Part shown: positions 164-20,153 of the stretch, piece after piece
Layout of the letters: the number at the start of each line of letters is the position of its first letter
Position numbering within the stretch: the first letter of the stretch is position 1
Assembly: GCF_024298765.1 (NCBI RefSeq)
Contig: NZ_CP101210.1
Length of the DNA stretch: 64,000 bases
Origin: Escherichia coli
Lineage (GTDB): Bacteria; Pseudomonadota; Gammaproteobacteria; Enterobacterales; Enterobacteriaceae
Reading direction: 5' to 3' (one strand)
Program-made: the position numbers and the translations under genes
Notes under the pieces: model-generated
Told to the model about the DNA's origin: nothing
Database searches by the model: none
The model's input: the letters and a program-made list of their open reading frames with translations, nothing else

Positions 164-739
164 TCAAAGCAATTTTTTCGCTAACGTCCAGACCCCGGTA
201 TTCGTGGTGGAAAGCGCCACAACACCCGCGTTAATCGCATTACGCGCATCTTCTTCATCGCACACCAGCCCGCCGGCAATCAGCGGTTGGCGGATTTTCT
301 CCGTCACCCAGCCCAGCACTTTAGGCATACAGCCTGGCAGGATCTCAATACAATCCGGATTCGATTGCGCAACTTGCTTATCAATGTTGTGAAACGAAAT
401 CGAATCAACAATAAACAGGCGATGAATACAGAAAAAACCTTCCGCTCTTGCCGCTTTCAACATTGAGGCTTTGGTACTGATAATGCCGTCCGCCTCAGTC
501 ACCAGTTTCAAAAACTGAATCACCACTTCTTTATTTGACGCGCCTTCCAGCAAATCAACATGAATAAAAGCATATTTTCCGGCATTTTTAATCTTTTTAA
601 CGATTTGACTAATGGTGCAGATATTGCCGTACAACACGGAAATAAACTGGCATTCAGAGTCGATTGCCAGTTGCAGGCTGGCATTATCTTTAACGGCAGC
701 AATCACCGGATTCTGGCGGAGCAGGTGTAAGAGGGGCAT
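164..739 (-). CDS. ygcP: GlpP-like glycerol-3-phosphate responsive antiterminator family protein YgcP
   Basis: 191-aa ORF from track; sequence and length recognised as E. coli YgcP; synteny with ygcN/ygcO. Confidence 0.8.
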   Translation of the reverse strand: MPLLHLLRQNPVIAAVKDNASLQLAIDSECQFISVLYGNICTISQIVKKIKNAGKYAFIHVDLLEGASNKEVVIQFLKLVTEADGIISTKASMLKAARAEGFFCIHRLFIVDSISFHNIDKQVAQSNPDCIEILPGCMPKVLGWVTEKIRQPLIAGGLVCDEEDARNAINAGVVALSTTNTGVWTLAKKLL

Positions 740-755
740 AAATTATCCTTATTAT

Positions 756-1016
756 TTATCCAAAACGGTAGGTGATGCCGAATCCGGAAGGCGGATAGCG
801 CCACTGTTGTAGTGTTGATTCGTCGCACAGCAAACGGCAGGTGCCACACTCCAGGCAGCCGCGATAATCAACGCGTAAGTCACCTTCCGGTGTGAGCGAA
901 AAAAGACCAGCCGGACAAGCGTTAATCAACCGTTGTACCGTCTGACGCTCAACGGAGTCAGCCGGTACAATGTGCGGCGCATCGGCAACGCGCCAGAGAT
1001 TACGGGCTACAGACAT
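756..1016 (-). CDS. ygcO: FixX-like ferredoxin-like protein YgcO
   Basis: Track ORF 756..1052 (98 aa) contains cysteine cluster CLECGTC; likely true start is the internal Met giving 86 aa (MSVARNLW...); start position inferred. Confidence 0.7.
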   Translation of the reverse strand: MSVARNLWRVADAPHIVPADSVERQTVQRLINACPAGLFSLTPEGDLRVDYRGCLECGTCRLLCDESTLQQWRYPPSGFGITYRFG

Positions 1017-2278
1017 CGCAGACTCCTGATAACATCGCCCGCCAGATGCCACAGGCCGTGACGACGTAAATGACGCCAGAATAACTGGCGCAGCGGTGGA
1101 ACAGGTTTATCACCCTGATCCCATAAATCGCGGGAAATATCCTGCATTAACGCAGGCCACGCACGGTACCATCCAGGGCGTTGCAAAAGCGCCGGAACAT
1201 GCTGATAACGTTGTAGAACATCCCATAGCAGGCTGCGCTCGACGTTGTGATGATAAAGCGCAAACAGATTTTGCGGCTCGCGGTGCTGGCAGGCGCTTAT
1301 CAGCGTTTGTGCCGCCGCCTGCGTGCCAGTCAGCGCCATATCCATGCCGCGCACGGAAATTCCGGTATTGACGCAACTGCGCAACGCATCGCCCAGCAGC
1401 AGCCAGCCGTTACCGGCGTATTGCACCGGCATACTGTGCAAGCCACCTTCTGGCACCAGATGCGCACCATACTCCAGTGATTCCGTGTTTTTGATAAGCG
1501 GGCGCACTGCCGGATGCGTTTTAAAGCGAGCCAGCAGCTCGCTTGCCGGAACACGACTTTGCGTAAGGGAAGAGAGCGGGCAAACAATCCCTAACGAGAG
1601 CGTTTGTTGATTAGTATAAAGAAATGCGCCGCCGGGTAAGTCATCACAGATCCCGCCGCTGAACAGCAACGCTGCGCCTTCGTTATTCTCCAGATGAAAA
1701 CGTTCTTCAATAGCGGATGTTTCCAGCGACAGCACTTCTTTGATCCCCAACGCCATCGCTTCGCCAGCAGGACGAGTCACTAACCCGTGACGTTCAGCCA
1801 GGACGCTGTTGGCACCTTCTGCCAGCACCACATAACGGGCGCGAAGAATATCGTCACCACAAATGACACCACACACCCTGCCGTTTTCTTCATACAGTGC
1901 ATCTACCGTCGCACCGGGGATGCATTCGACACCTTCTTTTTCGGCTTCGGCAACCAGCCACGGATCGAATCGTGCACGTAATACACTCCAGGATTCACCG
2001 CCGGGCTGTAAGCTGGAAAACGTCGTTGCGCCATCTGGCGTTAACAGAGAAAGACTTTCGTGAGTGATGCGTCGTTCAAGGGGCGCGGTCAGGTGAAATT
2101 GTGGGAGGAGTTCCGCGAGCGCATGGGTGTATAGCCGCCCGCCGGAAAGATTTTTGCTGCCGGGAATTTCCGCTCGTTCCACTAACAAAACGGATAAACC
2201 CGCTCGCGCGCAGCGTAACGCGCAAGCGGTGCCAGCAATTCCGGCACCGATAATAATAATGTCGCAGTCGTCTTCCAT
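1007..2278 (-). CDS. ygcN: FixC-like FAD-dependent oxidoreductase YgcN
   Basis: Track ORF 1007..2308; N-terminal DIIIIGAGIAG Rossmann FAD motif; likely start at MEDDCD (423 aa). Confidence 0.8.
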   Translation of the reverse strand: MEDDCDIIIIGAGIAGTACALRCARAGLSVLLVERAEIPGSKNLSGGRLYTHALAELLPQFHLTAPLERRITHESLSLLTPDGATTFSSLQPGGESWSVLRARFDPWLVAEAEKEGVECIPGATVDALYEENGRVCGVICGDDILRARYVVLAEGANSVLAERHGLVTRPAGEAMALGIKEVLSLETSAIEERFHLENNEGAALLFSGGICDDLPGGAFLYTNQQTLSLGIVCPLSSLTQSRVPASELLARFKTHPAVRPLIKNTESLEYGAHLVPEGGLHSMPVQYAGNGWLLLGDALRSCVNTGISVRGMDMALTGTQAAAQTLISACQHREPQNLFALYHHNVERSLLWDVLQRYQHVPALLQRPGWYRAWPALMQDISRDLWDQGDKPVPPLRQLFWRHLRRHGLWHLAGDVIRSLRCL

Positions 2279-4836: not shown

Positions 4837-6548
4837 TGAGCGAAAAACATCCAGGGCCTTTAGTGGTCGAAGGAAAACTGACAGACGCCGAGCGCATGAA
4901 GCTTGAAAGCAACTACCTGCGCGGCACCATTGCGGAAGATTTAAACGACGGTCTGACCGGCGGCTTTAAGGGCGACAACTTCCTGCTGATCCGCTTCCAC
5001 GGCATGTATCAGCAGGATGACCGCGACATCCGCGCCGAACGTGCTGAACAGAAGCTGGAGCCGCGCCACGCGATGCTGTTGCGCTGCCGTCTGCCGGGTG
5101 GCGTGATCACCACCAAACAGTGGCAGGCGATAGACAAATTTGCCGGTGAAAACACCATCTATGGCAGCATTCGCCTGACCAACCGCCAGACGTTTCAGTT
5201 CCACGGCATTCTGAAAAAGAACGTCAAACCGGTGCACCAGATGCTGCACTCGGTCGGCCTTGATGCGCTGGCGACTGCTAACGACATGAACCGTAACGTA
5301 CTCTGCACCTCGAACCCTTACGAGTCGCAACTGCACGCGGAAGCATATGAATGGGCGAAGAAAATCTCTGAACATCTGCTGCCTCGTACCCGCGCGTATG
5401 CGGAGATCTGGCTCGATCAGGAAAAAGTCGCCACTACTGATGAAGAGCCGATCCTTGGTCAGACCTACCTGCCGCGTAAGTTCAAAACCACGGTAGTGAT
5501 CCCGCCGCAGAACGATATCGATCTGCACGCCAACGACATGAACTTCGTGGCAATCGCCGAAAACGGCAAGCTGGTGGGCTTTAACCTGCTGGTGGGCGGT
5601 GGGCTTTCCATCGAACATGGCAACAAGAAAACCTACGCCCGCACGGCGAGTGAGTTTGGCTATCTGCCGCTGGAGCATACGTTGGCAGTGGCGGAAGCCG
5701 TCGTGACAACTCAGCGTGACTGGGGTAACCGAACCGATCGTAAAAATGCCAAAACCAAATACACGCTGGAGCGCGTAGGGGTTGAGACGTTTAAAGCGGA
5801 AGTTGAACGTCGCGCGGGGATCAAATTCGAGCCGATTCGCCCGTATGAGTTTACCGGACGCGGCGATCGTATTGGCTGGGTTAAGGGCATTGATGATAAC
5901 TGGCACCTGACGCTGTTTATCGAAAATGGTCGCATTCTTGATTATCCGGGACGTCCGCTGAAAACCGGCTTGCTGGAGATCGCGAAGATCCACAAAGGTG
6001 ATTTCCGCATTACGGCGAACCAGAATCTGATCATCGCCGGCGTGCCGGAAAGCGAGAAAGCGAAGATCGAGAAGGTCGCCAAAGAAAGCGGGTTAATGAA
6101 TGCCGTCACGCCGCAGCGTGAAAACTCAATGGCCTGCGTGTCATTCCCGACTTGCCCGCTGGCGATGGCGGAAGCGGAGCGTTTCCTACCGTCTTTTATC
6201 GACAACATCGATAATTTAATGGCGAAACATGGTGTCAGCGATGAGCATATCGTGATGCGTGTAACAGGCTGCCCGAACGGTTGTGGTCGCGCGATGCTGG
6301 CGGAAGTGGGTCTGGTGGGGAAAGCGCCGGGTCGCTACAACCTGCATCTTGGCGGCAACCGCATTGGGACACGTATCCCACGGATGTATAAAGAAAACAT
6401 CACCGAGCCGGAAATCCTGGCGTCGCTTGATGAACTGATAGGGCGCTGGGCGAAAGAGCGCGAAGCGGGTGAAGGCTTCGGCGACTTTACGGTGCGTGCG
6501 GGCATCATTCGCCCGGTGCTCGATCCGGCGCGCGATTTGTGGGATTAA
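4836..6548 (+). CDS. cysI: sulfite reductase hemoprotein beta subunit
   Basis: 570-aa ORF; recognised CysI sequence with siroheme/4Fe-4S cysteine motifs ([19 protein letters not shown]). Confidence 0.95.
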
Positions 6549-6564
6549 CCATTAGCCCGGTCTT

Positions 6565-6600
6565 GTAGGCCTGATAAGACGCGTGAGCGTCGCATCAGGC
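6565..6600. repeat. REP palindromic element
   Basis: Palindrome GCCTGATAAGACGCGTGAGCGTCGCATCAGGC in the cysI-cysH intergenic region. Confidence 0.6.
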
Positions 6601-6621
6601 AAGGCAAACAGTGAGGAATCT

Positions 6622-7356
6622 ATGTCCAAACTCGATCTAAACGCCCTGAACGAACTGCCGAAGGTAGATCGCATTCTGGCGCTGGCGGAAACTAACGCCG
6701 AACTGGAAAAACTGGACGCTGAAGGCCGCGTTGCCTGGGCGCTGGATAATCTGCCCGGTGAATATGTACTTTCTTCCAGCTTTGGCATTCAGGCGGCGGT
6801 GAGCCTGCATCTGGTGAATCAGATTCGCCCGGATATTCCGGTGATCCTCACCGATACCGGCTATCTGTTCCCAGAAACCTACCGCTTTATTGACGAGTTA
6901 ACGGACAAACTCAAGCTCAACCTGAAAGTGTACCGCGCTACCGAAAGCGCCGCCTGGCAGGAAGCGCGCTACGGTAAACTGTGGGAGCAGGGTGTTGAGG
7001 GGATTGAGAAGTACAACGAGATCAACAAAGTCGAACCGATGAACCGGGCGCTGAAAGAACTGAATGCGCAAACCTGGTTTGCTGGCCTGCGCCGTGAACA
7101 ATCCGGCAGCCGCGCCAATTTACCGGTGCTGGCAATTCAGCGTGGCGTATTTAAAGTGCTGCCGATTATCGACTGGGATAACCGAACTATTTATCAGTAC
7201 CTGCAAAAACATGGCCTGAAATATCACCCATTATGGGACGAAGGATATTTATCGGTCGGTGATACCCATACAACCCGTAAATGGGAACCCGGCATGGCGG
7301 AAGAAGAAACGCGTTTCTTTGGCTTAAAAAGAGAATGTGGGTTACACGAAGGGTAA
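6622..7356 (+). CDS. cysH: phosphoadenosine phosphosulfate (PAPS) reductase
   Basis: Track ORF 6583..7356; 244-aa protein from [17 protein letters not shown] recognised as CysH; ATG at 6622 preceded by GAGGAA. Confidence 0.9.
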
Positions 7357-7373
7357 ATATTGCCGGATAAATT

Positions 7374-7410
7374 AAACGCCCCTGTCAGAAATGATGGGGC
7401 GTTTTTATTT
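7374..7410 (+). terminator. Rho-independent terminator after cysH
   Basis: Hairpin AAACGCCCC / GGGGCGTTT followed by a T-run, read directly from the sequence. Confidence 0.6.
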
Positions 7411-7524
7411 TGCGAGCAGCATTCCGGCATTTAAAGGTGAACATCGCAGGGAGAATTAACAGGTATAGAATGGAGTTGGGTGCTTGAGGCTGTCTGGCGT
7501 TAAGCATTCGCGAGGTTCCAGATG

Positions 7525-7582
7525 GACAAAAGCCCCAGGCGATATTTCTATCAACCTGAGGCCAGCGTTCGAACCTAAGCAA
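7525..7582 (-). ncRNA. Sok-like antisense RNA of a hok/sok-type locus (predicted)
   Basis: On the minus strand: candidate -35 TTGCCT (plus 7611-7616) and -10 TAACAT (plus 7588-7593) with 17-bp spacing, then a ~57-nt transcript ending in hairpin GCCUCAGG...CCUGGGGC plus CUUUUGU. Size matches the Sok antisense RNA family; boundaries inferred. Confidence 0.4.
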
Positions 7583-7619
7583 TTCGAATGTTAGTCTCTT
7601 CTTTGCAGGGAGGCAAGAC

Positions 7620-7772
7620 ATGCTGACAAAATATGCCCTTGTGGCAATCATCGTACTGTGTTGTACAGTACTGGGATTCACGCTGATGGTAGGCGACTCG
7701 TTGTGTGAGTTGAGTATCAGAGAACGTGGTATGGAGTTTAAGGCAGTTCTCGCTTACGAATCGAAGAAGTAG
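7620..7772 (+). CDS. Hok/Gef family small membrane toxin (type I toxin)
   Basis: 50-aa ORF below the track length cutoff, read by hand: [50 protein letters not shown]. Hydrophobic N-terminal helix plus the conserved DSLCEL...AYES pattern of Hok family toxins; RBS GGGAGG upstream. Confidence 0.7.
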
Positions 7773-7778
7773 CCACCA

Positions 7779-7798
7779 CGCGGGGGTAAAACCCCGCG
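7779..7798 (+). other. Stable stem-loop at the 3' end of the hok-like mRNA (possible fold-back element)
   Basis: CGCGGGG-TAAAA-CCCCGCG perfect hairpin a few nt after the hok stop codon. Confidence 0.4.
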
Positions 7799-8009
7799 TA
7801 CTGAATTGTGATGGTTTGGTCTCCTGCACCCTTTTTTAATTTATATTGTTTATGTGAATATTATGCCTATGTTTATTATTTATATATATTATGGATGAAA
7901 ATCATTTAATTATTCACAATGTAAATATTTTATTGAAAGATATATGTCACAGATAATTTTTAATATATGCGTGAATATCCTTTAAGTTTTACTGAAGGAT
8001 AAAAATATT

Positions 8010-10667
8010 GTGACTTTCTTTTATTTCTGGGGAAAAACCCGACGCGGCGAGAAAGACGGGGGCGAAGACTATCACCTTCTTTGCTGGCATTCGCTGGATG
8101 TAGCCGCGATGGGCTATTTAATGGTTAAAAGCAATTGCTTCGGACTGGCTGGCTATTTTCGTCAATTAGGTTTCGCTGACACGGAGCTGGCAGCACAATT
8201 TTTCGCCTGGCTGCTGTGCTGGCACGATATTGGAAAATTTGCCCGCTCTTTTCAGCAACTTTACCTGCACCCACAACTCAAGGTTCCGGAAGGCGCAAGA
8301 AAGAATTACGAAAAGATCTCTCATTCAACGCTGGGCTACTGGTTGTGGAACCATTATTTAAGTGAATGTCAGGAGTTGCTTCCTTCATCTTCACTCTCTC
8401 CGCGCAAACTTAAACGGGTGATGGAGATGTGGATGCCCATGACTACCGGGCATCATGGTCGACCCCCTGAGCGTATGGATGAACTGGATAATTTTCTGCC
8501 TGAAGACAAAGGTGCCGCACGAGATTTTCTCCTTGCAATCAAGGTACTGTTTCCGCTCATAGAGATCCCCACATTCTGGGATGATGACGAGGGCGTTGAA
8601 CTTATAAAACAACTTTCCTGGTATATCTCTGCAACCGTCGTACTTGCAGACTGGACGGGATCGTCAACGCGATATTTTCCACGCGTTGCACAGGCAATGG
8701 ATATTGAAGATTACTGGCAGAAAACTTTAGTTCAGGCTCAAAACGCCTTAACCGTCTTTCCTCCAAAAGCAGAAAGCGCGCCTTTCACCGGAATTAATAC
8801 GCTGTTTCCTTTTATTGAGAATCCGACACCGCTACAGCAAAAGGTGCTGGATCTGGATATCAGCCAGCCGGGACCACAGTTATTTATTCTGGAGGATGTA
8901 ACCGGCGCAGGTAAAACAGAAGCGGCGCTTATCCTGGCGCACAGGTTGATGGCTGCGGGGAAAGCGCAGGGTTTGTTTTTTGGCCTGCCAACAATGGCAA
9001 CGGCCAATGCCATGTACGATCGACTGGTCAAAACCTGGCTTGCTTTCTATTCGCCAGAGTCCCGCCCCAGCCTGGTGCTGGCACACAGTGCCCGAACATT
9101 AATGGACCGCTTTAATGAATCACTCTGGTCCGGTGATTTAGTCGGGTCAGAAGAACCGGATGAACAAACGTTCAGTCAGGGATGTGCGGCCTGGTTTGCC
9201 GACAGTAACAAGAAGGCGCTACTGGCTGAAATTGGCGTCGGCACGCTGGATCAGGCGATGATGGCTGTGATGCCGTTCAAACATAATAATCTGCGGCTTC
9301 TGGGACTGAGTAACAAAATCCTGCTGGCTGATGAGATCCATGCCTGTGACGCTTACATGTCATGCATTCTTGAAGGGCTGATCGAGCGGCAGGCGCGTGG
9401 CGGAAACAGCGTCATTTTGCTTTCTGCCACGTTATCTCAACAGCAGCGCGACAAACTCGTCGCCGCCTTTGCGCGTGGTATAGAGGGCCAGCAAGAAGCT
9501 CCGTTGCTGGAAAAGGATGATTACCCCTGGCTGACGCACGTTACGAAATCCGATGTGCATTCACACCGGGTAGCGACGCGCAAAGACGTTGAGCGCAGCG
9601 TGAGTGTGGGTTGGCTTCATAGCGAACAAGAGTGTATTGCGCGTATCGAATCGGCGGTAAGTCAGGGGAAATGTATCGCCTGGATCCGAAATTCTGTCGA
9701 TGACGCCATCCAGGTTCATCGTCAGTTACTTGCCCGCGGCGTCATTCCTGCTTCCAGCCTTTCACTTTTTCATAGCCGCTTTGCTTTTAGCGATCGCCAG
9801 CGAATTGAAACGGAGACGCTGGCACGCTTTGGTAAAGAAGACTGTTCACAGCGTGCCGGAAAAGTCCTCATTTGTACTCAAGTCCTGGAGCAGAGCGTTG
9901 ACTGCGACCTGGACGAAATGATTTCCGACCTTGCCCCTGTTGATTTACTGATCCAGCGGGCGGGGCGATTACAGCGGCATATCCGCGATATTAATGGTCT
10001 GTTAAAGCGTGACGGAAAAGACGAGCGTTCCCCTCCTGAATTTCTGATTCTGGCTCCCGTCTGGGACGACTCTCCGGGTGACGAATGGTTTGGCAGCGCC
10101 ATGCGTAACAGTGCATATGTCTACCCCGATCATGGGCGAATCTGGCTGACGCAGCGTGTGCTGCGTGAGCAAGGCGCTATTCAGATGCCACACGCAGCCC
10201 GGCTTCTTATTGAATCAGTCTACGGTGAAGACGTGGCAATGCCGGAAGGATTTGCCCGCAGTGAGCAGGAGCAAGTGGGCAAATATTACTGCGATCGCGC
10301 AATGGCTAAAAAGTTTGTCCTGAACTTCAAGCCTGGCTATGCCGCCAATATCAACGATTACCTTCCGGAAAAGCTGTCGACACGTCTGGCTGAGGAATCT
10401 GTTTCCCTGTGGCTGGCTACCTGTATTGACGGTGTGGTGAAGCCTTATGCCACCGGTGCTCACGCATGGGAAATGAGCGTTGTCAGAGTGCGTCGAAGCT
10501 GGTGGAAAAAACATCGGGATGAGTTTTCTTTACTGGAAGGGGATGCGTTCAGGCAGTGGTGCATTGAACAGCGGCAAGATCCGGAGATGGCAAACGTGAT
10601 TTTAGTCACCGATGACGAAAGTTGCGGGTATTCGGCTATGGAAGGATTGACTGGCAAGGTTGGTTGA
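8010..10667 (+). CDS. cas3: CRISPR-associated helicase/nuclease Cas3 (type I-E)
   Basis: 885-aa ORF starting at GTG 8010 (AAGGA 10 nt upstream); HD-nuclease-like N-terminus (H..LDVAA, HDIGK) and DEAD/DEAH helicase motifs (GAGKTEAA, DEIH); first gene of the cas operon. Confidence 0.9.
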   Translation: MTFFYFWGKTRRGEKDGGEDYHLLCWHSLDVAAMGYLMVKSNCFGLAGYFRQLGFADTELAAQFFAWLLCWHDIGKFARSFQQLYLHPQLKVPEGARKNYEKISHSTLGYWLWNHYLSECQELLPSSSLSPRKLKRVMEMWMPMTTGHHGRPPERMDELDNFLPEDKGAARDFLLAIKVLFPLIEIPTFWDDDEGVELIKQLSWYISATVVLADWTGSSTRYFPRVAQAMDIEDYWQKTLVQAQNALTVFPPKAESAPFTGINTLFPFIENPTPLQQKVLDLDISQPGPQLFILEDVTGAGKTEAALILAHRLMAAGKAQGLFFGLPTMATANAMYDRLVKTWLAFYSPESRPSLVLAHSARTLMDRFNESLWSGDLVGSEEPDEQTFSQGCAAWFADSNKKALLAEIGVGTLDQAMMAVMPFKHNNLRLLGLSNKILLADEIHACDAYMSCILEGLIERQARGGNSVILLSATLSQQQRDKLVAAFARGIEGQQEAPLLEKDDYPWLTHVTKSDVHSHRVATRKDVERSVSVGWLHSEQECIARIESAVSQGKCIAWIRNSVDDAIQVHRQLLARGVIPASSLSLFHSRFAFSDRQRIETETLARFGKEDCSQRAGKVLICTQVLEQSVDCDLDEMISDLAPVDLLIQRAGRLQRHIRDINGLLKRDGKDERSPPEFLILAPVWDDSPGDEWFGSAMRNSAYVYPDHGRIWLTQRVLREQGAIQMPHAARLLIESVYGEDVAMPEGFARSEQEQVGKYYCDRAMAKKFVLNFKPGYAANINDYLPEKLSTRLAEESVSLWLATCIDGVVKPYATGAHAWEMSVVRVRRSWWKKHRDEFSLLEGDAFRQWCIEQRQDPEMANVILVTDDESCGYSAMEGLTGKVG

Positions 10668-10764
10668 GATGCCTGCGACAGGGCTCTCTGAATAGTTGAT
10701 ACACAGAAAAAGATGGAAGGATGGACAACCGGCCAGGGATGGTCTTTTTTACGAGAGGATGCGT

Positions 10765-12327
10765 ATGAACTCGTTTTCACTTCTGACAACCCCGTGGTTG
10801 CCCGTTCGTTTTAAAGACGGAACAACAGGCAAACTGGCGCCAGTCCATCTGGCGGATGAAAATGTTGTCGATATAGCTGCGCCGCGGGCAGATCTCCAGG
10901 GGGCGGCATGGCAGTTTTTGCTGGGGCTACTACAAACCAGCTTCGCGCCAAAAGATCATCGTCGTTGGGATGATATCTGGGAAGACGGACTGGAAGCTGA
11001 AAAGCTACGGGAGGCATTGCTGCCATTAGAGCACGCTTTCCAGTTTGGGCCAGATTCCCCTTCATTTATGCAGGATTTTGAGGCGCTCACGGGAGATAAA
11101 GTTCCGGTCGCTTCGCTACTGCCTGAGATTCCCGGCGTTCAAACAACAAAGTTTAATAAAGACCACTTTATCAAGCGTGGTGTAACGGAACACCTGTGCC
11201 CACAGTGTTCTGCACTAGCCTTGTTCTCTCTACAGTTAAATGCGCCGTCAGGCGGCAAAGGCTATCGCACCGGCTTACGCGGCGGTGGGCCGATGACTAC
11301 TCTGATTGAATTACAGGAATATCAGGGCAATCAACAAACTCCCTTGTGGCGCAAAATGTGGCTCAACGTGATGCCGCAGGATGAAGCCGACTTACCGCTA
11401 CCCAAAAAATTTGACGGTCTGGTTTTCCCCTGGCTTGGCCCGACGCGCACCAGCGAACTGGCCGGTGCGGTGGTAACCGATGATCAGGTTAATAAACTCC
11501 AGGCGTACTGGGGAATGCCGCGGCGTATTCGTATTGATTTTAATACCACGACAGTCGGCAACTGCGATATTTGCGGCGAGCAGAACGACGCGCTCCTGAG
11601 CCTGATGACGACCAAAAATTACGGTGCGAATTATGCCATGTGGCAGCATCCTTTAACGCCTTACCGTATACCACTTAAAGAGGGTGGCGAGTTTTACTCG
11701 GTCAAACCACAACCGGGCGGTTTAATCTGGCGCGACTGGTTAGGCCTTATCGAAACGGGTAAGTCAGAAAACAATACGGAACTTCCTGCACTGGTGGTGA
11801 AACTCTTTAATGCCAGCAGTCTGAAACAGGCAAAAGTGGGCCTATGGGGATTTGGTTATGATTTTGACAACATGAAAGCGCGCTGTTGGTACGAACACCA
11901 TTTCCCGCTACTGCTCAATAAAAAAGAAGGCCAGATACCGAAGCTGCGGCTGGCTGCGCAAACGGCTTCACGGATTCTGAGTCTGTTACGGAGTGCATTG
12001 AAAGAAGCATGGTTCTCCGATCCAAAAGGTGTAAGGGGTGATTTCAGTTTTGTGGATATCGACTTCTGGAACAAAACTCAGCATCGCTTCCTGAGGTTAG
12101 TGCGCCAAATTGAAGAAGGTCAGGATGCGGATGAATTACTCGGCAAATGGCAAAAGGAAATTTGGTTATTCGCGCGTCAGGATTTTGACGAGCGTGTATT
12201 CACTAATCCTTATGAGCCCGTTGATTTGAAACGCGTCATGACCGCGCGCAAGAAATATTTTACAACATCGGCGGAGAAGCAAAGTGCTAAAGCCGCCAGG
12301 GAGAAAAAGCAGGAGGCTGCTGAATGA
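10765..12327 (+). CDS. casA: Cascade large subunit Cse1/CasA (Cas8e)
   Basis: Track ORF 10696..12327; likely start ATG 10765 (MNSFSLLTTPWLPV) preceded by GAGAGG; position and size match the Cascade large subunit. Confidence 0.8.
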   Translation: MNSFSLLTTPWLPVRFKDGTTGKLAPVHLADENVVDIAAPRADLQGAAWQFLLGLLQTSFAPKDHRRWDDIWEDGLEAEKLREALLPLEHAFQFGPDSPSFMQDFEALTGDKVPVASLLPEIPGVQTTKFNKDHFIKRGVTEHLCPQCSALALFSLQLNAPSGGKGYRTGLRGGGPMTTLIELQEYQGNQQTPLWRKMWLNVMPQDEADLPLPKKFDGLVFPWLGPTRTSELAGAVVTDDQVNKLQAYWGMPRRIRIDFNTTTVGNCDICGEQNDALLSLMTTKNYGANYAMWQHPLTPYRIPLKEGGEFYSVKPQPGGLIWRDWLGLIETGKSENNTELPALVVKLFNASSLKQAKVGLWGFGYDFDNMKARCWYEHHFPLLLNKKEGQIPKLRLAAQTASRILSLLRSALKEAWFSDPKGVRGDFSFVDIDFWNKTQHRFLRLVRQIEEGQDADELLGKWQKEIWLFARQDFDERVFTNPYEPVDLKRVMTARKKYFTTSAEKQSAKAAREKKQEAAE

Positions 12328-12860
12328 GTATTGTAAAAGAGGAGCACAAAGCCACGCTGCGTAAATGGCACGAAGAGTTGCAGGAAAAACGCGGCAATCG
12401 TGCCAGTCTGCGGCGTAGCACAACGGTTAATGATGTTTGTCTGTCAGAAGGGTTTCGTTCTCTGCTGATGCAGACCCACACGTTGTGGAAAATTGAATCA
12501 CAGGAGTGGCGTTTTACCGCACTGGCGCTGGTTGCCGCCGTTGCCGCCAATGTAAAAGCCATTGATGAACGGCAGCCTTTTGCCGCGCAGTTGGCGGCGG
12601 TAATGTCTGAGGGGCGTTTTACTCGCCTGTCGGCAGTCAAAACGCCGGATGAATTACTGCGCCAGTTACGTCGCGCGGTCAAATTATTAAATGGTTCCGT
12701 CAATCTTATCTCTTTGGCAGACGATATTTTCCGCTGGTGCCAGGAGAGCGACGATCTGCTCAATCATCACCGCCGCCAGCAGCGGCCAACAGAATTTATC
12801 CGTATCCGCTGGGCGCTGGAATATTACCAGGCTGGCGACGCCGATAACGAACAAAATTAA
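12324..12860 (+). CDS. casB: Cascade small subunit Cse2/CasB (Cas11)
   Basis: 178-aa ORF; start overlaps the cse1 stop (ATGA); AGGAGG RBS; position in operon. Confidence 0.8.
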   Translation: MSIVKEEHKATLRKWHEELQEKRGNRASLRRSTTVNDVCLSEGFRSLLMQTHTLWKIESQEWRFTALALVAAVAANVKAIDERQPFAAQLAAVMSEGRFTRLSAVKTPDELLRQLRRAVKLLNGSVNLISLADDIFRWCQESDDLLNHHRRQQRPTEFIRIRWALEYYQAGDADNEQN

Positions 12861-12874
12861 TAAAGGACTATCTC

Positions 12875-13930
12875 ATGACGACATTTATTCAGCTTCATTT
12901 GTTAACCGCTTACCCTGCTGCCAACCTTAACCGTGATGACACCGGTGCGCCAAAAACTGTGGTACTGGGTGGAGCAACGCGTCTGCGCGTTTCCTCACAA
13001 AGTCTGAAACGTGCGTGGCGCACTTCTGCACTTTTTGAACAGGCACTGGCGGGCCATATTGGTATTCGCAGTGGGCGTATTGCGCGTGAGGCGGCAACTA
13101 TCCTGATTGAGAAAGGCATCGAAGAGAAAAAAGCCATCGAATGGGCGGCAAAAATTGCGGATTATCTTGGGAAAGCTAAAAACGACAAAAAACCAAAAGA
13201 TCCGCTCACTAACGCCGAAACTGAACAGCTAGTCCATATCAGCCCGGCAGAATTTGACGCCGTAAAAGCGCTGGCCCATCAACTGGCCGAAGAAAAGCGC
13301 GCGCCAAAAGAGGAAGATCTCGCTTTGTTACGTAAAGATCGCATGGCGGTAGATATCGCTATGTTTGGTCGTATGCTGGCGAATAAACCCGAATTTAATG
13401 TTGAAGCCGCCTGCCAGGTCGCGCATGCATTTGGTGTCAGTGAAACGATTGTCGAAGATGATTTTTTCACCGCCGTTGATGATTTGCGCCAGGCTTCTGA
13501 AGATGCCGGTGCCGGGCATCTTGGTGAAACCGGATTCGGTTCTGCGCTGTTCTACACCTATATCTGCATCGATAAAGATCTGCTGGTCGAAAACCTCGGC
13601 GGTGACGAAGCGTTAGCTAATCAGACCTTGCGCGCCTTTACGGAAGCCGCACTTAAAGTCTCCCCAACCGGCAAACAGAACAGCTTTGCCAGCCGTGCCT
13701 ACGCCTCCTGGGCGCTGGCAGAAAAAGGCACTGAACAACCACGCTCTCTGGCGGCGGCTTTCTATGAACCCATTAATGGCACCCTCCAGTTAGATGTGGC
13801 GGTGCAGCGTATTACAACGCTTCGCGAAAATATGAATACGGTCTATGAACAGAAGACCGAATGTGCAAGCTTTGACGTGATGAACAAACAGGGAAGCATG
13901 AAGGACGTGCTGGACTTTATCTGCGCGTAA
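12875..13930 (+). CDS. casC: Cascade backbone subunit Cas7e/CasC
   Basis: 351-aa ORF; N-terminus MTTFIQLHLLTAYPAANLNRDDTGAPKT recognised as the CasC family. Confidence 0.9.
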   Translation: MTTFIQLHLLTAYPAANLNRDDTGAPKTVVLGGATRLRVSSQSLKRAWRTSALFEQALAGHIGIRSGRIAREAATILIEKGIEEKKAIEWAAKIADYLGKAKNDKKPKDPLTNAETEQLVHISPAEFDAVKALAHQLAEEKRAPKEEDLALLRKDRMAVDIAMFGRMLANKPEFNVEAACQVAHAFGVSETIVEDDFFTAVDDLRQASEDAGAGHLGETGFGSALFYTYICIDKDLLVENLGGDEALANQTLRAFTEAALKVSPTGKQNSFASRAYASWALAEKGTEQPRSLAAAFYEPINGTLQLDVAVQRITTLRENMNTVYEQKTECASFDVMNKQGSMKDVLDFICA

Positions 13931-13940
13931 GGGGCGGCTA

Positions 13941-14687
13941 ATGAGCCAATATTTGATTTTTCAGCTTCATGGGCCAATGGCATCCTGGGGCGTCGATGCC
14001 CCTGGCGAAGTGCGTCATACCCATGAACTGCCTTCGCGCTCAGCATTGCTGGGGCTGCTGGCTGCCGGGGTAGGGATTCGGCGTGATGATACCGAACGAT
14101 TAAACGCGTTTAACCGCCACTATTCACTGGTGGTTTGCGCCAGCCGTAACCCGCGCTGGGCACGGGATTATCACACGGTCCAGATGCCAAAAGAGGTGCG
14201 TAAAGCGCGTTATTTCAGCCGTCGCGAAGAGTTGAGCGCCCCTGATCTTCTGAGCGCGATTATCTCCCGGCGCGACTACTACACCGATGCCTGGTGGATG
14301 GTGGCGGTGGCAACAACCCCCGATGCGCCTTACAGCCTTGAACAGTTGCAGGACGGTTTACGTCATCCGGTTTTTCCGCTTTATCTGGGGCGAAAAAGTC
14401 ATCCGCTGGCGTTACCACTTGCGCCGTTACTGCTCGAAGGCAACGCGTCTGATGTCTTACGTAACGCATACCAACAGTATCAGGATAGTTTCCGCGAACT
14501 GAAAGTCTCACTCCCGAAACTTCAGGATGAATGCTGGTGGGAAGGGGAACACGACGGCCTGGTCGCGAGCAAAATATTACGTCGCCGGGATGTTCCTTTA
14601 AATCGTCAGCAGTGGCTGTTTGGGGAACGCACCATCAATCAGGGGCCGTGGCTCAGCAAGGAGGAACCATGTACCTCTCAAGAATAA
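13941..14687 (+). CDS. casD: Cascade subunit Cas5e/CasD
   Basis: 248-aa ORF; N-terminus MSQYLIFQLHGPMASWG recognised as the Cas5e family. Confidence 0.85.
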   Translation: MSQYLIFQLHGPMASWGVDAPGEVRHTHELPSRSALLGLLAAGVGIRRDDTERLNAFNRHYSLVVCASRNPRWARDYHTVQMPKEVRKARYFSRREELSAPDLLSAIISRRDYYTDAWWMVAVATTPDAPYSLEQLQDGLRHPVFPLYLGRKSHPLALPLAPLLLEGNASDVLRNAYQQYQDSFRELKVSLPKLQDECWWEGEHDGLVASKILRRRDVPLNRQQWLFGERTINQGPWLSKEEPCTSQE

Positions 14688-15315
14688 CCTTACATACCGG
14701 CCAGCTTTCCCCAGCGCAGTTGCTGCATCTGGTGGATCGCGGTGAATATGTAATGCATCAGTGGCTGTGGGATCTTTTTCCTGGCGGCAAAGAAAGGCAA
14801 TTTCTTTATCGTCGGGAAGAACTCCAGGGGGCGTTTCGCTTTTTTGTCCTGTCGCAGGAACGCCCGGCGGAAAGTGATATTTTCACCATCGAATGCCGAC
14901 CATTTGCGCCAGAGTTGCGTACCGGACAATCCCTTTGTTTCAACCTGCGGGCGAATCCAACAATTTGTAAAGCGGGCAAACGCCACGACTTGCTGATGGA
15001 GGCGAAACGGCAGGTGAGGGGGCAGGTGGAAGGAAGTGATGTCTGGTTGCATCAACAACAGGCTGCGCTGGACTGGCTGGCAGCGCAGGGGGAGAGAAGC
15101 GGTTTTACACTGCTGGATACTTCGGTTGATGCCTACCGACAACAGCAACTGCGGCGGGAAAACTCCCGGCAACTGATCCAGTTCAGTAGCGTGGATTATA
15201 CGGGGATGCTTACGGTCACCGATCCTGGGTTATTTCTGCAACGTCTCAGTCAGGGGTATGGCAAAAGCCGGGCGTTCGGTTGTGGTCTGATGCTGATCAA
15301 ACCCGGAGCAGAGGC

Positions 15316-15319
<4 letters not shown>
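14669..15319 (+). CDS. casE: CRISPR RNA endoribonuclease Cas6e/CasE
   Basis: Track ORF 14531..15319; likely start ATG 14669 (MYLSRITL) with AAGGAGG RBS; glycine-rich C-terminal GCGLM loop typical of Cas6e. Confidence 0.85.
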
Positions 15320-16529
<1,210 letters not shown>

Positions 16530-16625
16530 GTTATCCGTTCTTTAAAAATAAGGAAATGTTTTAATTTAGTTGGTAGATTGTTGATGCGGAATAAATTTGT
16601 TTAAAAACAGTTATGTATGCTTAGT
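16530..16625 (+). promoter_or_regulatory. CRISPR leader (AT-rich, array promoter and integration site)
   Basis: About 96-bp AT-rich segment between the cas2 stop and the first repeat. Confidence 0.6.
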
Positions 16626-17935
16626 GTGTTCCCCGCGCCAGCGGGGATAAACCGCATTGAAAACATTGCCTTTATTTTATTTTTTGGTGTTCCCCGCGCC
16701 AGCGGGGATAAACCGGTGCCGCCGCTGGGCACTTCCTTCCCGTGAGTGTGTTCCCCGCGCCAGCGGGGATAAACCGCCCTGATAGCGTCCAGTTGAATGC
16801 GCGCCCGCGTGTTCCCCGCGCCAGCGGGGATAAACCGGCAGGCACGGGCAATATCAGACTCGGTCAAAGGTGTTCCCCGCGCCAGCGGGGATAAACCGCT
16901 CGGTTGTTTTCATATTACCGGCCTGCCACTGTGTTCCCCGCGCCAGCGGGGATAAACCGACAATATCCCGGACCGGGCGCTGATTTAGTCAGTGTTCCCC
17001 GCGCCAGCGGGGATAAACCGCGGACGGTGGGAATATAGAAAATCCGTCCACCGTGTTCCCCGCGCCAGCGGGGATAAACCGTTATACTCTTTTCATCGAC
17101 TAAGGAGGGGAGGGTGTTCCCCGCGCCAGCGGGGATAAACCGCAATAACGCAGCATCCAGGAAGCTGTTTCCGCGTGTTCCCCGCGCCAGCGGGGATAAA
17201 CCGCGATCGGTGAAGAGGTCCGCGAAATACTCACTGTGTTCCCCGCGCCAGCGGGGATAAACCGGCGATAGTTGATTCAGCCGCGCCAGCGAATGTGTGT
17301 TCCCCGCGCCAGCGGGGATAAACCGGGGCCGCCGCGAATTTACACACGATTCAATACGTGTTCCCCGCGCCAGCGGGGATAAACCGAACTGGTGCGCGAC
17401 GGCTGGCTAACAAAACGAGTGTTCCCCGCGCCAGCGGGGATAAACCGCGTGGCTGCGCTGGCCGTTGCAGCAGTTTGATGTGTTCCCCGCGCCAGCGGGG
17501 ATAAACCGCGTAAACGCCCCGTCGCCATTAATTTCGGGGTGTGTTCCCCGCGCCAGCGGGGATAAACCGTGGGATGAGCAAATAACGTCGTTTCCTAGAA
17601 AGTGTTCCCCGCGCCAGCGGGGATAAACCGCCGCCGTGCCAGTGATCCTCATACGGCCTGTTGTGTTCCCCGCGCCAGCGGGGATAAACCGAAATTAAGA
17701 ACGGCGTAAACGACGGCAGCATGGTGTTCCCCGCGCCAGCGGGGATAAACCGGTGATGATTCAGAGCAGACATTAGCCCGCGCTGTGTTCCCCGCGCCAG
17801 CGGGGATAAACCGGGTAAAAACACGGTCTGAACCGACATTCATGTGTGTTCCCCGCGTCAGCGGGGATAAACCGGACGCACTGGATGCGATGATGGATAT
17901 CACTTAGAATTCCCCGCCCCTGCGGTAGAACTCCC
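16626..17935 (+). CRISPR. Type I-E CRISPR array: 21 repeats of GTGTTCCCCGCGCCAGCGGGGATAAACCG plus a degenerate terminal repeat, 21 spacers of 32 nt
   Basis: Repeats counted by hand at 16626, 16687, 16748 ... 17846 with an exact 61-bp period. Repeat 21 (17846-17874) carries one substitution (GCGTCAGCG); the terminal repeat 17907-17935 (GAATTCCCCGCCCCTGCGGTAGAACTCCC) matches about 18/29. Confidence 0.97.
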
Positions 17936-17955
17936 AACTCCCATTTTCATACCCA

Positions 17956-18993
17956 TCAAGACGCCTTCGCCAGCTCCTTCACCAGCGGTAGCATTATCCG
18001 CATAACATCACGGCAGCGACGTTCTATTCTTCCTGGAAGTGCCTTATCAATATGTTGTTGATTATCCAGTCTTACGTCATGCCAGCTATTTCCCGCAGGG
18101 AATGCAGCTGTTTTTGCGCGTTGCTGATAACCATCCTTATTCCCAAGATTCCAATTTGTTGCTTCTACCGAAAGTACGGCAATACCGGCTTTGTCGAAAA
18201 CTTCGGCGTCATTACAACAGCCAGTACCCTTCGGATAATTTTTATTCAAACCCGGATTGGTCGTTGCGGCAATTCCATGACTACGCGCAATTGCCAGCGC
18301 CCTGTCGTGCGTTAATTTCCTTACTGCTTCAGGGGTTTTTACACCGCTGTTGAAATACAATTTATCGCCAACAATTAAGTTATCGAGATTAATCACCAGC
18401 AGCGTATTTTTCTTTTCGGTGTCACTCATCCGCTTGAGTAAATTCTCAGCGCCTAATTTTCCTTCCTCTTCGCCGCTGGTCGCCACAAATCGAATACCAT
18501 ACTCGGTAGGCGTATTTTTCAGGCGTTCAGCCAGTTCCAGCATGACACCTAAACCTGCGGCGTTATCATCCATTCCTTGTAACGTTAGCCCGCCGAGATT
18601 GGCATCGGCGTCAGCATCGCTCAGCGGGGCGTAAGTATCCAGATGCGCCATAATGATGATCTGCTGCGGCGCTTTGCCTTCATGAGCGGCAATCACCGTA
18701 CTTCCCGTCACGTTATGCCAGCTCTTGCGATTATCGCGGGCGGTATAAATATACCGACTATTAAATGTCCGAATATCACTGCGATAACCCATTTGCTGAA
18801 ACTGCTGGCGAATATAATCGGCAGATAACATTTCTGCAGGAGTTCCGGTCATGCGTCCCGGAAAGAAAGTAGCAATATGTCGTGCCTGGGTATTAGCAAA
18901 ATCGCCAGGTTTAGGTGACGAGGCGTGTACGGGGAGAATAAAGCATACGCCGAGCGCCAGGGCAGCGGTACGGTGGCGCAATGCGGAAAACAT
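17956..18993 (-). CDS. iap: alkaline phosphatase isozyme conversion aminopeptidase
   Basis: 345-aa ORF with signal peptide; recognised as Iap; convergent with the CRISPR array as in E. coli. Confidence 0.9.
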   Translation of the reverse strand: MFSALRHRTAALALGVCFILPVHASSPKPGDFANTQARHIATFFPGRMTGTPAEMLSADYIRQQFQQMGYRSDIRTFNSRYIYTARDNRKSWHNVTGSTVIAAHEGKAPQQIIIMAHLDTYAPLSDADADANLGGLTLQGMDDNAAGLGVMLELAERLKNTPTEYGIRFVATSGEEEGKLGAENLLKRMSDTEKKNTLLVINLDNLIVGDKLYFNSGVKTPEAVRKLTHDRALAIARSHGIAATTNPGLNKNYPKGTGCCNDAEVFDKAGIAVLSVEATNWNLGNKDGYQQRAKTAAFPAGNSWHDVRLDNQQHIDKALPGRIERRCRDVMRIMLPLVKELAKAS

Positions 18994-19244
18994 AGTGAGT
19001 CCTTAAATACCATGCAAATTTTTTTACCGCCATAGTATGAAACTGCCGCTGCGCTAAAACAATTTCAAATCTTCCTAAACGCCCGAAATCCGGTGCCTTA
19101 AGCACTTTTTGATATTAGCTTTGCCAAATCGTTATTCCGTTAAGGAACTACTCATTCTAATTGGTAATTTCATTCGTTCTCTTACGCTCCCTATAGTCGA
19201 AACATCTGATGGCAAGAAAATAGCGGTATTGCAAAGGAACGGTT

Positions 19245-20153
19245 ATGGATCAAAAACGACTTACTCACCTGCGGCAACTGGAGGCGGAAAGCATCCACAT
19301 TATTCGCGAGGTGGCGGCAGAATTCTCAAATCCGGTGATGCTCTACTCTATCGGTAAAGATTCCAGCGTCATGCTGCATCTGGCGCGCAAGGCGTTTTAT
19401 CCAGGTACGCTGCCTTTCCCGTTGCTGCATGTCGATACCGGCTGGAAATTCCGCGAGATGTATGAGTTCCGCGATCGTACGGCTAAAGCCTACGGCTGCG
19501 AGCTGCTGGTGCATAAAAACCCGGAAGGCGTGGCGATGGGGATTAATCCATTCGTTCATGGCAGCGCGAAACATACCGATATTATGAAAACTGAAGGCCT
19601 GAAACAGGCGCTGAATAAATACGGTTTTGATGCCGCCTTCGGTGGTGCGCGCCGTGACGAAGAGAAATCCCGCGCTAAAGAGCGAATCTACTCTTTCCGT
19701 GACCGCTTCCATCGCTGGGATCCGAAAAATCAGCGCCCGGAGCTGTGGCACAACTACAACGGGCAAATTAACAAAGGCGAAAGCATTCGCGTCTTCCCGC
19801 TCTCTAACTGGACCGAGCAGGATATCTGGCAATACATCTGGCTGGAAAATATCGACATTGTTCCGCTGTATCTCGCTGCGGAACGTCCGGTTCTGGAACG
19901 CGACGGTATGTTGATGATGATTGATGACAACCGTATCGACCTGCAACCGGGCGAAGTGATCAAAAAACGGATGGTGCGTTTCCGTACGCTGGGCTGCTGG
20001 CCGCTGACCGGTGCGGTGGAGTCAAATGCACAAACACTGCCGGAGATCATCGAAGAGATGCTGGTTTCCACCACCAGTGAACGTCAGGGCCGCGTGATTG
20101 ACCGCGACCAGGCGGGGTCTATGGAGCTGAAAAAACGTCAGGGGTATTTTTAA
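19245..20153 (+). CDS. cysD: sulfate adenylyltransferase subunit 2
   Basis: 302-aa ORF recognised as CysD (PAPS reductase-like fold, SIGKDSSV motif). Confidence 0.95.

Follow-up and report, generated by a model that had tools for sequence, protein, structure and literature searches.

[quoted passage not shown] I regard the chances as about balanced that cas3, Cascade and cas1-cas2 are largely co-regulated from this cas3-upstream island. Judged from sequence and comparative analysis, expression of E1-type cas3 and Cascade as one unit is plausible but unproven; a literature search turned up neither transcript nor start-site nor ChIP data from E. coli E1 strains.

Under this proposal, the main regulatory DNA of the E1 locus would be the island of ~170-200 bp directly 5' of cas3. 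Its AT-rich tract would be coated by H-NS and the promoter would be silent under laboratory conditions, to be switched on by a CRP/FNR-family activator, possibly Fnr under anoxia, acting at a site whose distal half would be poor in the window allele. A transcript starting near 7985 would then run through cas3, across the 97-nt spacer and into cse1 to cas2, with cse1 translated from its own ribosome-binding site. This would contrast with K-12, whose casA promoter is separate and lies in a 414-bp AT-rich spacer under H-NS/LeuO control.

Identity and prevalence of the locus

The gene order cas3-cse1-cse2-cas7-cas5-cas6e-cas1-cas2-CRISPR is present between cysH and iap, and all eight cas ORFs are intact (ORF list, blastp).

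7478..7635, + strand: sok antitoxin RNA region of a hok/sok module (Rfam RF01794, 111.7 bits, E=8e-26)
7621..7773, + strand: hok-family toxin gene, 50 aa (annotated as 'Hok/Gef family protein' in matching genomes)
about 7780..7797, + strand: G+C-rich hok terminator hairpin (read directly from the sequence)
7806..8009, + strand: AT-rich cas3 upstream region, 204 bp, 22.1% G+C (composition)
8010..10667, + strand: cas3, 885 aa, E1 type (ORF list, blastp, matching-genome annotation)
10668..10764, + strand: cas3-cse1 spacer, 97 bp, 49.5% G+C (composition, promoter scan)
10765..12327, + strand: cse1/casA, 520 aa, E1 type (blastp comparisons)
12324..16529, + strand: cse2-cas7-cas5-cas6e-cas1-cas2 (ORF list, annotation of matching genome, blastp)

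The cas3 start is a GTG that is kept across genera, and the gene ends in TGA at 10665..10667; the ATG of cse1 is at 10765, behind the ribosome-binding site GAGAGGA (10753..10759), and from cse2 to cas2 neighbouring genes overlap or stand at most 14 bp apart. The window allele has one extra T 5' of the GTG, as a result of which the NCBI pipeline annotates cas3 as 'frameshifted' in strain CT30, which is identical.

This locus is the already described cas-E1 variant, and its architecture is known too (Almendros 2014, PMC3903273, the source of the E1/E2 naming of E. coli cas variants). Structurally I find no difference from E. coli cas-E1 / cas-EO, the O157:H7-type I-E system (Diez-Villasenor 2013, PMC3737337; Almendros 2014, PMC3903273): the window and annotated cas-E1 genomes have in common the chromosomal site cysH-hok/sok...iap, the gene order and the 97-bp cas3-cse1 gap, at 93-100% nucleotide identity. 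From cysH to cse1 the identity to O157:H7 F7349, where the gap is also 97 bp, is 93.7%. The window's CRISPR repeat consensus, GTGTTCCCCGCGCCAGCGGGGATAAACCG, is the reverse complement of CGGTTTATCCCCGCTGGCGCGGGGAACAC and hence of the 'A' repeat type (…GGGGAACAC), which goes with the E1 cas variant (PMC3737337). Furthermore, hok/sok, found in all strains but E2 carriers (Almendros 2014, PMC3903273), adjoins cas3 in the window, as expected of E1.

The first-pass annotation had called this arrangement a variant, a label that inverts the frequencies in complete E. coli genomes: the E1 junction occurs in 2429 of 5426 (~45%) and the K-12 junction in 1125 (~21%), making the E1 form about twice as common. 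What is known of how E. coli controls CRISPR-Cas (H-NS silencing, LeuO, and CRP at Pcas) was learned almost entirely in K-12, and the E1 layout of control DNA differs from that of K-12. If E1 has one promoter, most E. coli would fall outside the K-12 Pcas/LeuO paradigm. The cas3 promoter would then set the conditions under which most natural and pathogenic E. coli, O157:H7 among them, switch CRISPR on, with anoxia as one candidate inducing condition, as in Citrobacter rodentium, and this would bear on phage therapy, plasmid spread and the long-standing apparent inactivity of E. coli CRISPR.

The AT-rich region upstream of cas3

The extreme AT-richness that had been noticed 5' of cas3 is borne out, this being the lowest-G+C stretch of the window. 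Windows of 204 bp across the 64 kb average 53.3% G+C (sd 5.2%); only 0.047% of them are as low as 7806..8009, and every one of these overlaps the tract. The minimum lies at 7833..8036 (19.6%), and the next-lowest region reaches 33.3%. The compositional mark of an H-NS-silenced promoter is thus present (22% vs 53% G+C), and in the related S. Typhi system cas3 is reportedly silenced by H-NS (PMC8039139). Sigma70-like sites are dense, with 19 in 7774..8009, or 80 per kb as against 4.45 per kb window-wide. This density, together with alignment to the experimentally tested cas3 promoter of C. rodentium, supports the earlier view of the tract as a promoter region.

A candidate activator site and -10 block

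Alignment with the C. rodentium cas3 upstream region singles out two elements.

7937..7950, + strand: CRP/FNR-family palindrome AAGATATATGTCAC
7973..7978, + strand: candidate -10 hexamer GAATAT within the conserved block GTAAATAT (cross-genus alignment)

In C. rodentium the cas3 promoter of the I-E locus is activated by Fnr, and mutating the Fnr site abolishes both CRISPR immunity and anoxic induction of cas3 (Campbell et al. 2025, PMC12669028). That site, TTGATTGAAATCAC, lies at 1781..1794 of the locus I retrieved, agreeing with PMC12669028, and the upstream regions of C. rodentium and the window can be aligned, the same -10-like block following the palindrome in both. The promoter-proximal block GTAAATAT, the ribosome-binding site and the GTG/TTG start are all homologous by this alignment. 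The centre of the palindrome lies 66.5 nt 5' of the cas3 GTG in the window and at -69.5 in C. rodentium, a 3-nt indel apart. By position, then, AAGATATATGTCAC is the homologue of the C. rodentium Fnr site, in a form that is degenerate in the window allele: it matches the Fnr consensus TTGAT-N4-ATCAA at 10 of 14 positions (4 mismatches), whereas C. rodentium has 1 mismatch, O157:H7 (CTGATATATATCAC) has 2 and other E1 alleles have 2-3. These other alleles read CTGAT, ACGAT or ATGAT..ATCAC; by comparison, the distal half-site of the window (AAGAT) is poorer, and the right half contains a G (GTCAC). The promoter-proximal TCACA half is kept, with the -10-like block correctly spaced; the hexamer reads AAATAT in most E1 alleles and AATTAT in C. 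rodentium. If the palindrome acts as a class II activator site, transcription would start near 7985. E. coli is absent from the genera for which the source data of Fig. 1i in PMC12669028 give a predicted Fnr site.

A more specific version of the proposal, which I hold as a tentative and rather doubtful one, is that all E1 cas genes stand under one H-NS-prone, CRP/FNR-responsive promoter, and that the half-site alleles CTGAT, ACGAT, ATGAT and AAGAT set anoxic or gut inducibility, the window allele being a weak responder.

The cas3-cse1 spacer: one unit or two

The gap between cas3 and cse1 had been described as short and not AT-rich, which is correct at 97 bp and 49.5% G+C. This G+C is unremarkable, lying at the 26th percentile of windows of that length. 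The spacer is G-rich (31 G, 17 C); it has the same length in every E. coli E1 allele sampled and is 89 bp long in E. albertii.

10731..10750, + strand: weak 5-bp hairpin GGCCA-GGGA-TGGTC followed by T6 (terminator-like scan)

The hairpin-T6 element stands directly 5' of the cse1 ribosome-binding site, in a block also found in Intestinirhabdus alba. It is at best a leaky terminator or attenuator, as predicted from its sequence, and the spacer as a whole folds no better than shuffled sequence (z=-0.79). Under the one-unit proposal transcription would read through the spacer, which holds no good promoter and only this weak hairpin-T6, and whose G-richness would make it a poor Rho loading site.

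A serious contender, though one I place below an even chance, is that there are two units: cas3 on its own AT-rich promoter, and cse1 to cas2 and the CRISPR transcribed mainly from a weak, activator-dependent (e.g. LeuO-dependent) promoter either within the final few hundred bases of cas3 or in the 97-bp spacer. The short gap would then reflect compaction only, and Cas3 and Cascade would be under separate control. The hairpin and T6 could weaken read-through, which would suit such an arrangement, as would the top promoter-like match in the spacer (TTGATA-15-AAGGAT with an upstream TG, score 5.7). Spacer diversity is also lower than at third codon positions (0.06 vs 0.10), which hints at a function of the spacer itself. 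However, a consensus scan found no sigma70-like site scoring at least 6 in the 600 bp before cse1, where K-12 has many, and H-NS and LeuO would lack an AT-rich target there, the 3' end of cas3 and the spacer having G+C of 0.47-0.55. Nor is the spacer homologous in sequence to that of K-12. Promoter prediction, proposed earlier as a check, thus gives an island dense in sites and a spacer and cas3 3' end without a convincing promoter. The 3' end of cas3 may nonetheless contain a weak extra promoter.

Variation in the tract

Among nine E1 alleles the distal part (7841..7930) is hypervariable (diversity 0.124, as against 0.10 at third codon positions) and the proximal part (7931..8009) is conserved (0.033). 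An improbable reading is that the locus is decaying or largely silent and the tract ('IG4', Almendros 2014) a non-functional, horizontally acquired remnant bordering the cas-E1 cassette, one that varies freely and attracts insertions and is without particular regulatory significance: the distal part is at least as variable as synonymous sites and partly missing in E. albertii and Escherichia sp. MOD1, IS421 lies directly upstream in several genomes, and the activator site is degenerate in the window, but the proximal 80 bp are conserved in E. coli and alignable with the tested C. rodentium promoter, all eight cas ORFs are intact, and the IS insertion point is the G+C-rich hok terminator (7783..7794), outside the AT tract.

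Comparison with known systems

The Cse1 of the window is 72-77% identical to those of Citrobacter, Salmonella and Klebsiella (Salmonella 73-75%, C. rodentium 72%). Salmonella and the window have cas3 and cse1 closely linked and an AT-rich region 5' of cas3; they differ in the upstream neighbour (sopD in Salmonella, hok/sok in the window) and in an extra block of ~86 bp between cas3 and cse1 in E. coli and E. albertii. PMC8039139, drawing on work in S. Typhi (Medina-Aparicio 2011, 2017), lists five transcription units, among them an independent cas3 and, apart from it, an operon from cse1 to the CRISPR under LeuO, H-NS and Lrp control, and this favours two units. So does the gap of 11 bp in the S. 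enterica locus that I retrieved, which may come from a serovar other than Typhi. Because such a gap and, by that account, a separate S. Typhi cse1 operon are both on record, a short, non-AT-rich gap does not by itself prove one unit, and internal promoters within cas3, of a kind that consensus scans would miss, are possible. In the window I identified no counterpart of the separate cse1 promoter reported for S. Typhi.

Close spacing of cas3 and cse1 is common in relatives: across 56 species loci, the gap is at most 120 bp (short or overlapping) in 27, and in these the cas3 upstream region is more AT-rich (median -14.5 vs -6.5 G+C points; Mann-Whitney p=5e-4, a value that ignores phylogeny).

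The expression data from C. rodentium point both ways. Under anoxia cas3 through cas2 rise jointly (log2 2.84 for cas3, 2.2-2.6 for casA-E and 1.9 for cas2), whereas in mouse faeces the fold-changes are unlike (log2 4.9 for cas3, 1.6 for casA and 0.35 for cas2), and this excess of cas3 is an argument for either separate control of cas3 and Cascade, as two units would have it, or attenuation between them. The C. rodentium spacer is also different: it is 495 bp long, as against the window's 97 bp, and contains relics of CRISPR repeats as well as a strong promoter-like site (12.3).

Co-regulation from the cas3-upstream island would set the E1 locus apart from K-12, with which it has in common the I-E subtype, chromosomal site and gene order. 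The identity to K-12 is 85-86% for Cas1 and Cas2 but only 21-35% for the effector proteins (Cas3 29%, Cse1/CasA 21%; blastp), and hok, present in the window, is absent from K-12. Comparison of the K-12 locus with window positions 6001..19500 (blastn) gave no match between 7622 and 15337, and hence no spacer homology. The longer AT-rich region that the first-pass annotation placed before K-12 casA does exist: MG1655 has 414 bp between cas3 and casA, with a G+C of 29.5% overall and as low as 19% in some 100-bp stretches, and K-12 therefore does not have the same short gap. The K-12 region 5' of cas3 is only moderately AT-rich (36.8% G+C over 133 bp). In K-12 (cas-E2), Pcas lies in the cas3-casA spacer under H-NS/LeuO/CRP control (Pul 2010, Westra 2010; as cited in PMC4782391 and PMC7019758). 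That spacer contains strong promoter-like sites and the window's does not, the best consensus-scan scores before casA/cse1 being 8.3-11.1 in K-12 and 5.7 in the window.

Locus and variant identity

The cas genes in the window belong to a second E. coli I-E variant, which is previously described and has been named cas-EO (PMC3737337) and cas-E1 (PMC3903273), the K-12 form being cas-E2. The locus is laid out as follows.

Features of the locus (window coordinates)
up to 7356: cysI and cysH, sulfate-assimilation genes bounding the cas locus on one side
7478..7635: sok (Rfam)
7621..7773: hok, completing a sok/hok module between cysH and cas3
8010..10667: cas3, GTG start at 8010, TGA stop at 10665..10667
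10765..12327: cse1, ATG start at 10765
after cse1, to the cas2 end at 16529: cse2, cas7, cas5, cas6e, cas1 and cas2, in this order
about 16625..17900: leader and CRISPR array, beyond cas2
far side of the CRISPR array, minus strand: iap

Cas3, Cse1, Cas7, Cas5 and Cas6e are just 21-35% identical to their K-12 counterparts, Cas1 and Cas2 are 85-86% identical, and Cse2 had no significant match in K-12. Two further hallmarks of E1 were found, namely hok/sok beside cas3 and the 'A' type repeat. When 7300..11300 was searched by megablast in 5,426 complete E. coli genomes, 2,423 of them matched over at least 80% of its length; these include O157:H7 (93.7% identity) and an avian strain, CT30 (100%). 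Of the 5,426 genomes, 2,429 have the E1 cas3-cse1 junction and 1,125 that of K-12; thus, K-12 represents the minority form. Cse1 from the window shares 72-77% identity with its counterparts in Citrobacter, Salmonella, Klebsiella and Raoultella. Published work already covers the variant, its prevalence and the elements flanking it, and thousands of annotated genomes show the 97-bp gap between cas3 and cse1.

A 7-kb contig labelled as a MAG of the actinobacterium Collinsella sp. (JAIJJM010000114.1) carries a cas3-cse1 region 97% identical to E. coli E1, likewise with a 97-bp gap, and is almost certainly an E. coli contaminant from binning. On the cysH side, homology between the window and K-12 stops at 7622; the hok/sok module is intact in the window (7478..7773), and in K-12 just a sokX remnant survives (13354..13412 of the K-12 locus, L001). 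In CT30, otherwise 100% identical to the window here, an IS421 element (IS4/IS186-like; 650..1762 of the CT30 locus, L093) lies in the G+C-rich hok terminator hairpin (window 7783..7794) with a 12-bp target duplication, just ahead of the AT-rich promoter island of cas3. IS421 is found in this interval in several further E1 genomes as well (hits H2, H5 and H14), in agreement with the IS186 hot spot of Almendros 2014.

The AT-rich island upstream of cas3

The first-pass annotation had pointed to a strongly AT-rich region before cas3, and this proved correct: at 22.1% G+C, 7806..8009 lies below the 53.3% average of the window and is the lowest stretch in the 64 kb, with a minimum of 19.6% at 7833..8036 and a next-lowest region of 33.3%. 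A strict promoter scan returned 0 sites in both the island and the gap, and a position-weight scan, whose hits are consensus matches only, was used instead. It placed 19 sigma70-like sites scoring at least 6 in 7774..8009, equivalent to 80 per kb versus 4.45 per kb window-wide. Rfam assigned no RNA family to either the gap or the AT tract; sok was the only family hit.

The island has two parts. Diversity across nine E. coli E1 alleles is 0.124 in its hypervariable distal part (7841..7930), some of which is missing in E. albertii. Over the proximal 80 bp (7931..8009), which can be aligned across genera, the nine alleles are conserved (0.033 versus 0.10 at third codon positions). Central to this proximal part is a palindrome, which Citrobacter rodentium ICC168 carries as TTGATTGAAATCAC (L084 1781..1794), its centre 69.5 nt ahead of the GTG start. 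It is the Fnr site that Campbell et al. 2025 (PMC12669028) described; mutating it removed CRISPR immunity as well as the anoxic induction of cas3. The positional homologue in the window is AAGATATATGTCAC (7937..7950, centre -66.5). The promoter-proximal half, TCACA, is invariant in Escherichia, and the distal half-site varies by allele: CTGAT in O157:H7, ACGAT, ATGAT, and AAGAT in the window, the poorest match. Further downstream, a -10-like block is conserved, reading GAATAT in the window (7973..7978), AAATAT in the majority of alleles and AATTAT in C. rodentium; after it come a ribosome-binding site, AAGGA (7995..7999), and the GTG. Because the spacing of the -10-like block fits a class II activator-dependent promoter, such a promoter may operate here, with transcription predicted to start near 7985. 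H-NS would probably bind the island, judging from base composition and from the silencing of S. Typhi cas3 by H-NS reported in PMC8039139.

A second Fnr-like match with 2 mismatches, TGGATGAAAATCAT (7892..7905), had appeared to sit 69.5 nt before the NCBI-called O157:H7 cas3 ATG. It was ruled out: in the window that ATG (7967) is not in the cas3 reading frame, and the cross-genus start is GTG 8010. The genuine counterpart, by position, of the C. rodentium site is 7937..7950. The NCBI pipeline places the E1 cas3 start at an ATG 42 nt upstream of this GTG (window 7967..8012; 7665 in L002, an annotated E1 genome locus). An additional T in the window allele (aagTTTTactg) shifts that ATG out of the reading frame; CT30 cas3 (L093 2117..4817) is therefore labelled a 'frameshifted' pseudogene although the ORF from GTG 8010 is intact, which is probably an annotation artefact.

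The cas3-cse1 gap and its relatives

The gap is indeed short and not AT-rich, as had been claimed: at 97 bp (10668..10764) and 49.5% G+C it is unremarkable. Its sole terminator-like feature is a 5-bp hairpin with T6 (10731..10750) abutting the cse1 ribosome-binding site, and the gap RNA folds no better than shuffled sequence (z=-0.79). G-rich RNA is a poor Rho loading site, and the gap, with 31 G and 17 C, would therefore be one. Since it varies somewhat less than synonymous sites do (0.06 versus 0.10), the gap may have a function, at minimum as a ribosome-binding site. A sliding scan of third-codon-position diversity along cas3, meant to reveal a promoter embedded towards the 3' end, gave slightly lower values there (0.08-0.09 versus a mean of 0.12), from 11 sequences, which are too few for interpretation. 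Short direct repeats, GATGGAAG / GATGGACA / GGGATGGTC, occupy 10713..10744, and exactly one 8-bp unit is missing from the gap in E. albertii and Escherichia sp. MOD1.

Among 80 species-level loci with Cse1 relatives, in each of which cas3 was located, 56 have cas3 directly upstream on the same strand, and their spacing indicates that tight cas3-cse1 linkage is common.

Spacing between cas3 and cse1 (56 loci)
overlap to 20 bp: 17 loci; 11 bp in S. enterica diarizonae, C. youngae, Phytobacter and K. grimontii
21-120 bp: 10 loci; E. albertii 89 bp
121-250 bp: 3 loci
251-620 bp: 13 loci; C. rodentium (495 bp) was fetched separately, outside the 56
over 620 bp: 13 loci; room enough for inserted genes

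Escherichia differs from the 11-bp genera by an additional block of about 86 bp, the 3' half of which (GATGGAYAAC..CCAGGGAYGG..T-run..CGAGAGGAT) is common to Intestinirhabdus alba. Relative to the locus, the G+C of the cas3 upstream region has a median of -14.5 points where gaps are at most 120 bp versus -6.5 where they are long (Mann-Whitney p=5e-4, not corrected for phylogeny), which fits an association of short gaps with control DNA placed before cas3.

Two degenerate I-E CRISPR repeats, GCTTATCCCCGCTGGCGCGAGGAAC and GGTTTATCCCCTTCCTGGAAGGGGAAT, lie about 32 bp apart in the C. rodentium spacer (L084 4506..5000). The spacer also has a promoter-like site close to consensus (TTGAAC-17-TATTAT, scoring 12.3) and one copy of the TTACGAGAGGATG block that E. 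coli has ahead of cse1. It resembles a relic mini-array that has inserted between the two genes.

One transcription unit or two

That cas3 and Cascade are transcribed as one unit, or predominantly by read-through, has in my estimate an even chance of being correct. Sequence scans revealed neither a promoter nor a convincing terminator in the gap. Anoxia induces the C. rodentium locus as a whole (log2 2.84 for cas3, 2.2-2.6 for casA-E and 1.9-2.1 for cas1-2), and immunity in this species is lost on mutating the site upstream of cas3 (PMC12669028).

A separate internal cse1 promoter is somewhat less probable. PMC8039139, citing work on S. Typhi, describes cas3 as a unit of its own and cse1..CRISPR as a separate operon under LeuO, H-NS and Lrp; as the gap is just 11 bp in the fetched S. 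enterica locus, this scheme would there require a promoter inside cas3. In mouse faeces, the rise in C. rodentium cas3 far exceeds that in casA (log2 4.9 versus 1.6). Against such a promoter, the position-weight scan of the 600 bp before E1 cse1 found no site scoring at least 6 (the best scores 5.7; the K-12 spacer has sites at 8-11 and the C. rodentium spacer one at 12.3), nor was there any AT-rich stretch before cse1 or homology of the gap to the K-12 spacer. An internal promoter and read-through from cas3 can coexist. That the arrangement is a non-functional remnant seems to me very improbable.

Comparison with known systems

Control at the cas3 promoter in Enterobacteriaceae is an idea already in Campbell et al. 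2025 (PMC12669028). The literature searched yielded no published transcript or regulation data for E. coli E1 strains, and the work on the cas3 promoter and CRP (PMC7019758) and that on hns (PMC5394155) were both done in MG1655. The observation itself is sound and the proposal of one unit for E1 is reasonable, if unproven. The longer AT-rich spacer attributed to K-12 is real: in MG1655, cas3-casA spans 414 bp at 29.5% G+C, with stretches near 19%, whereas the region upstream of cas3, unlike that of the E1 window, is merely moderately AT-rich. Thus, the AT-rich island has effectively switched place between the two forms, lying before cas3 in E1 and between cas3 and casA in K-12.
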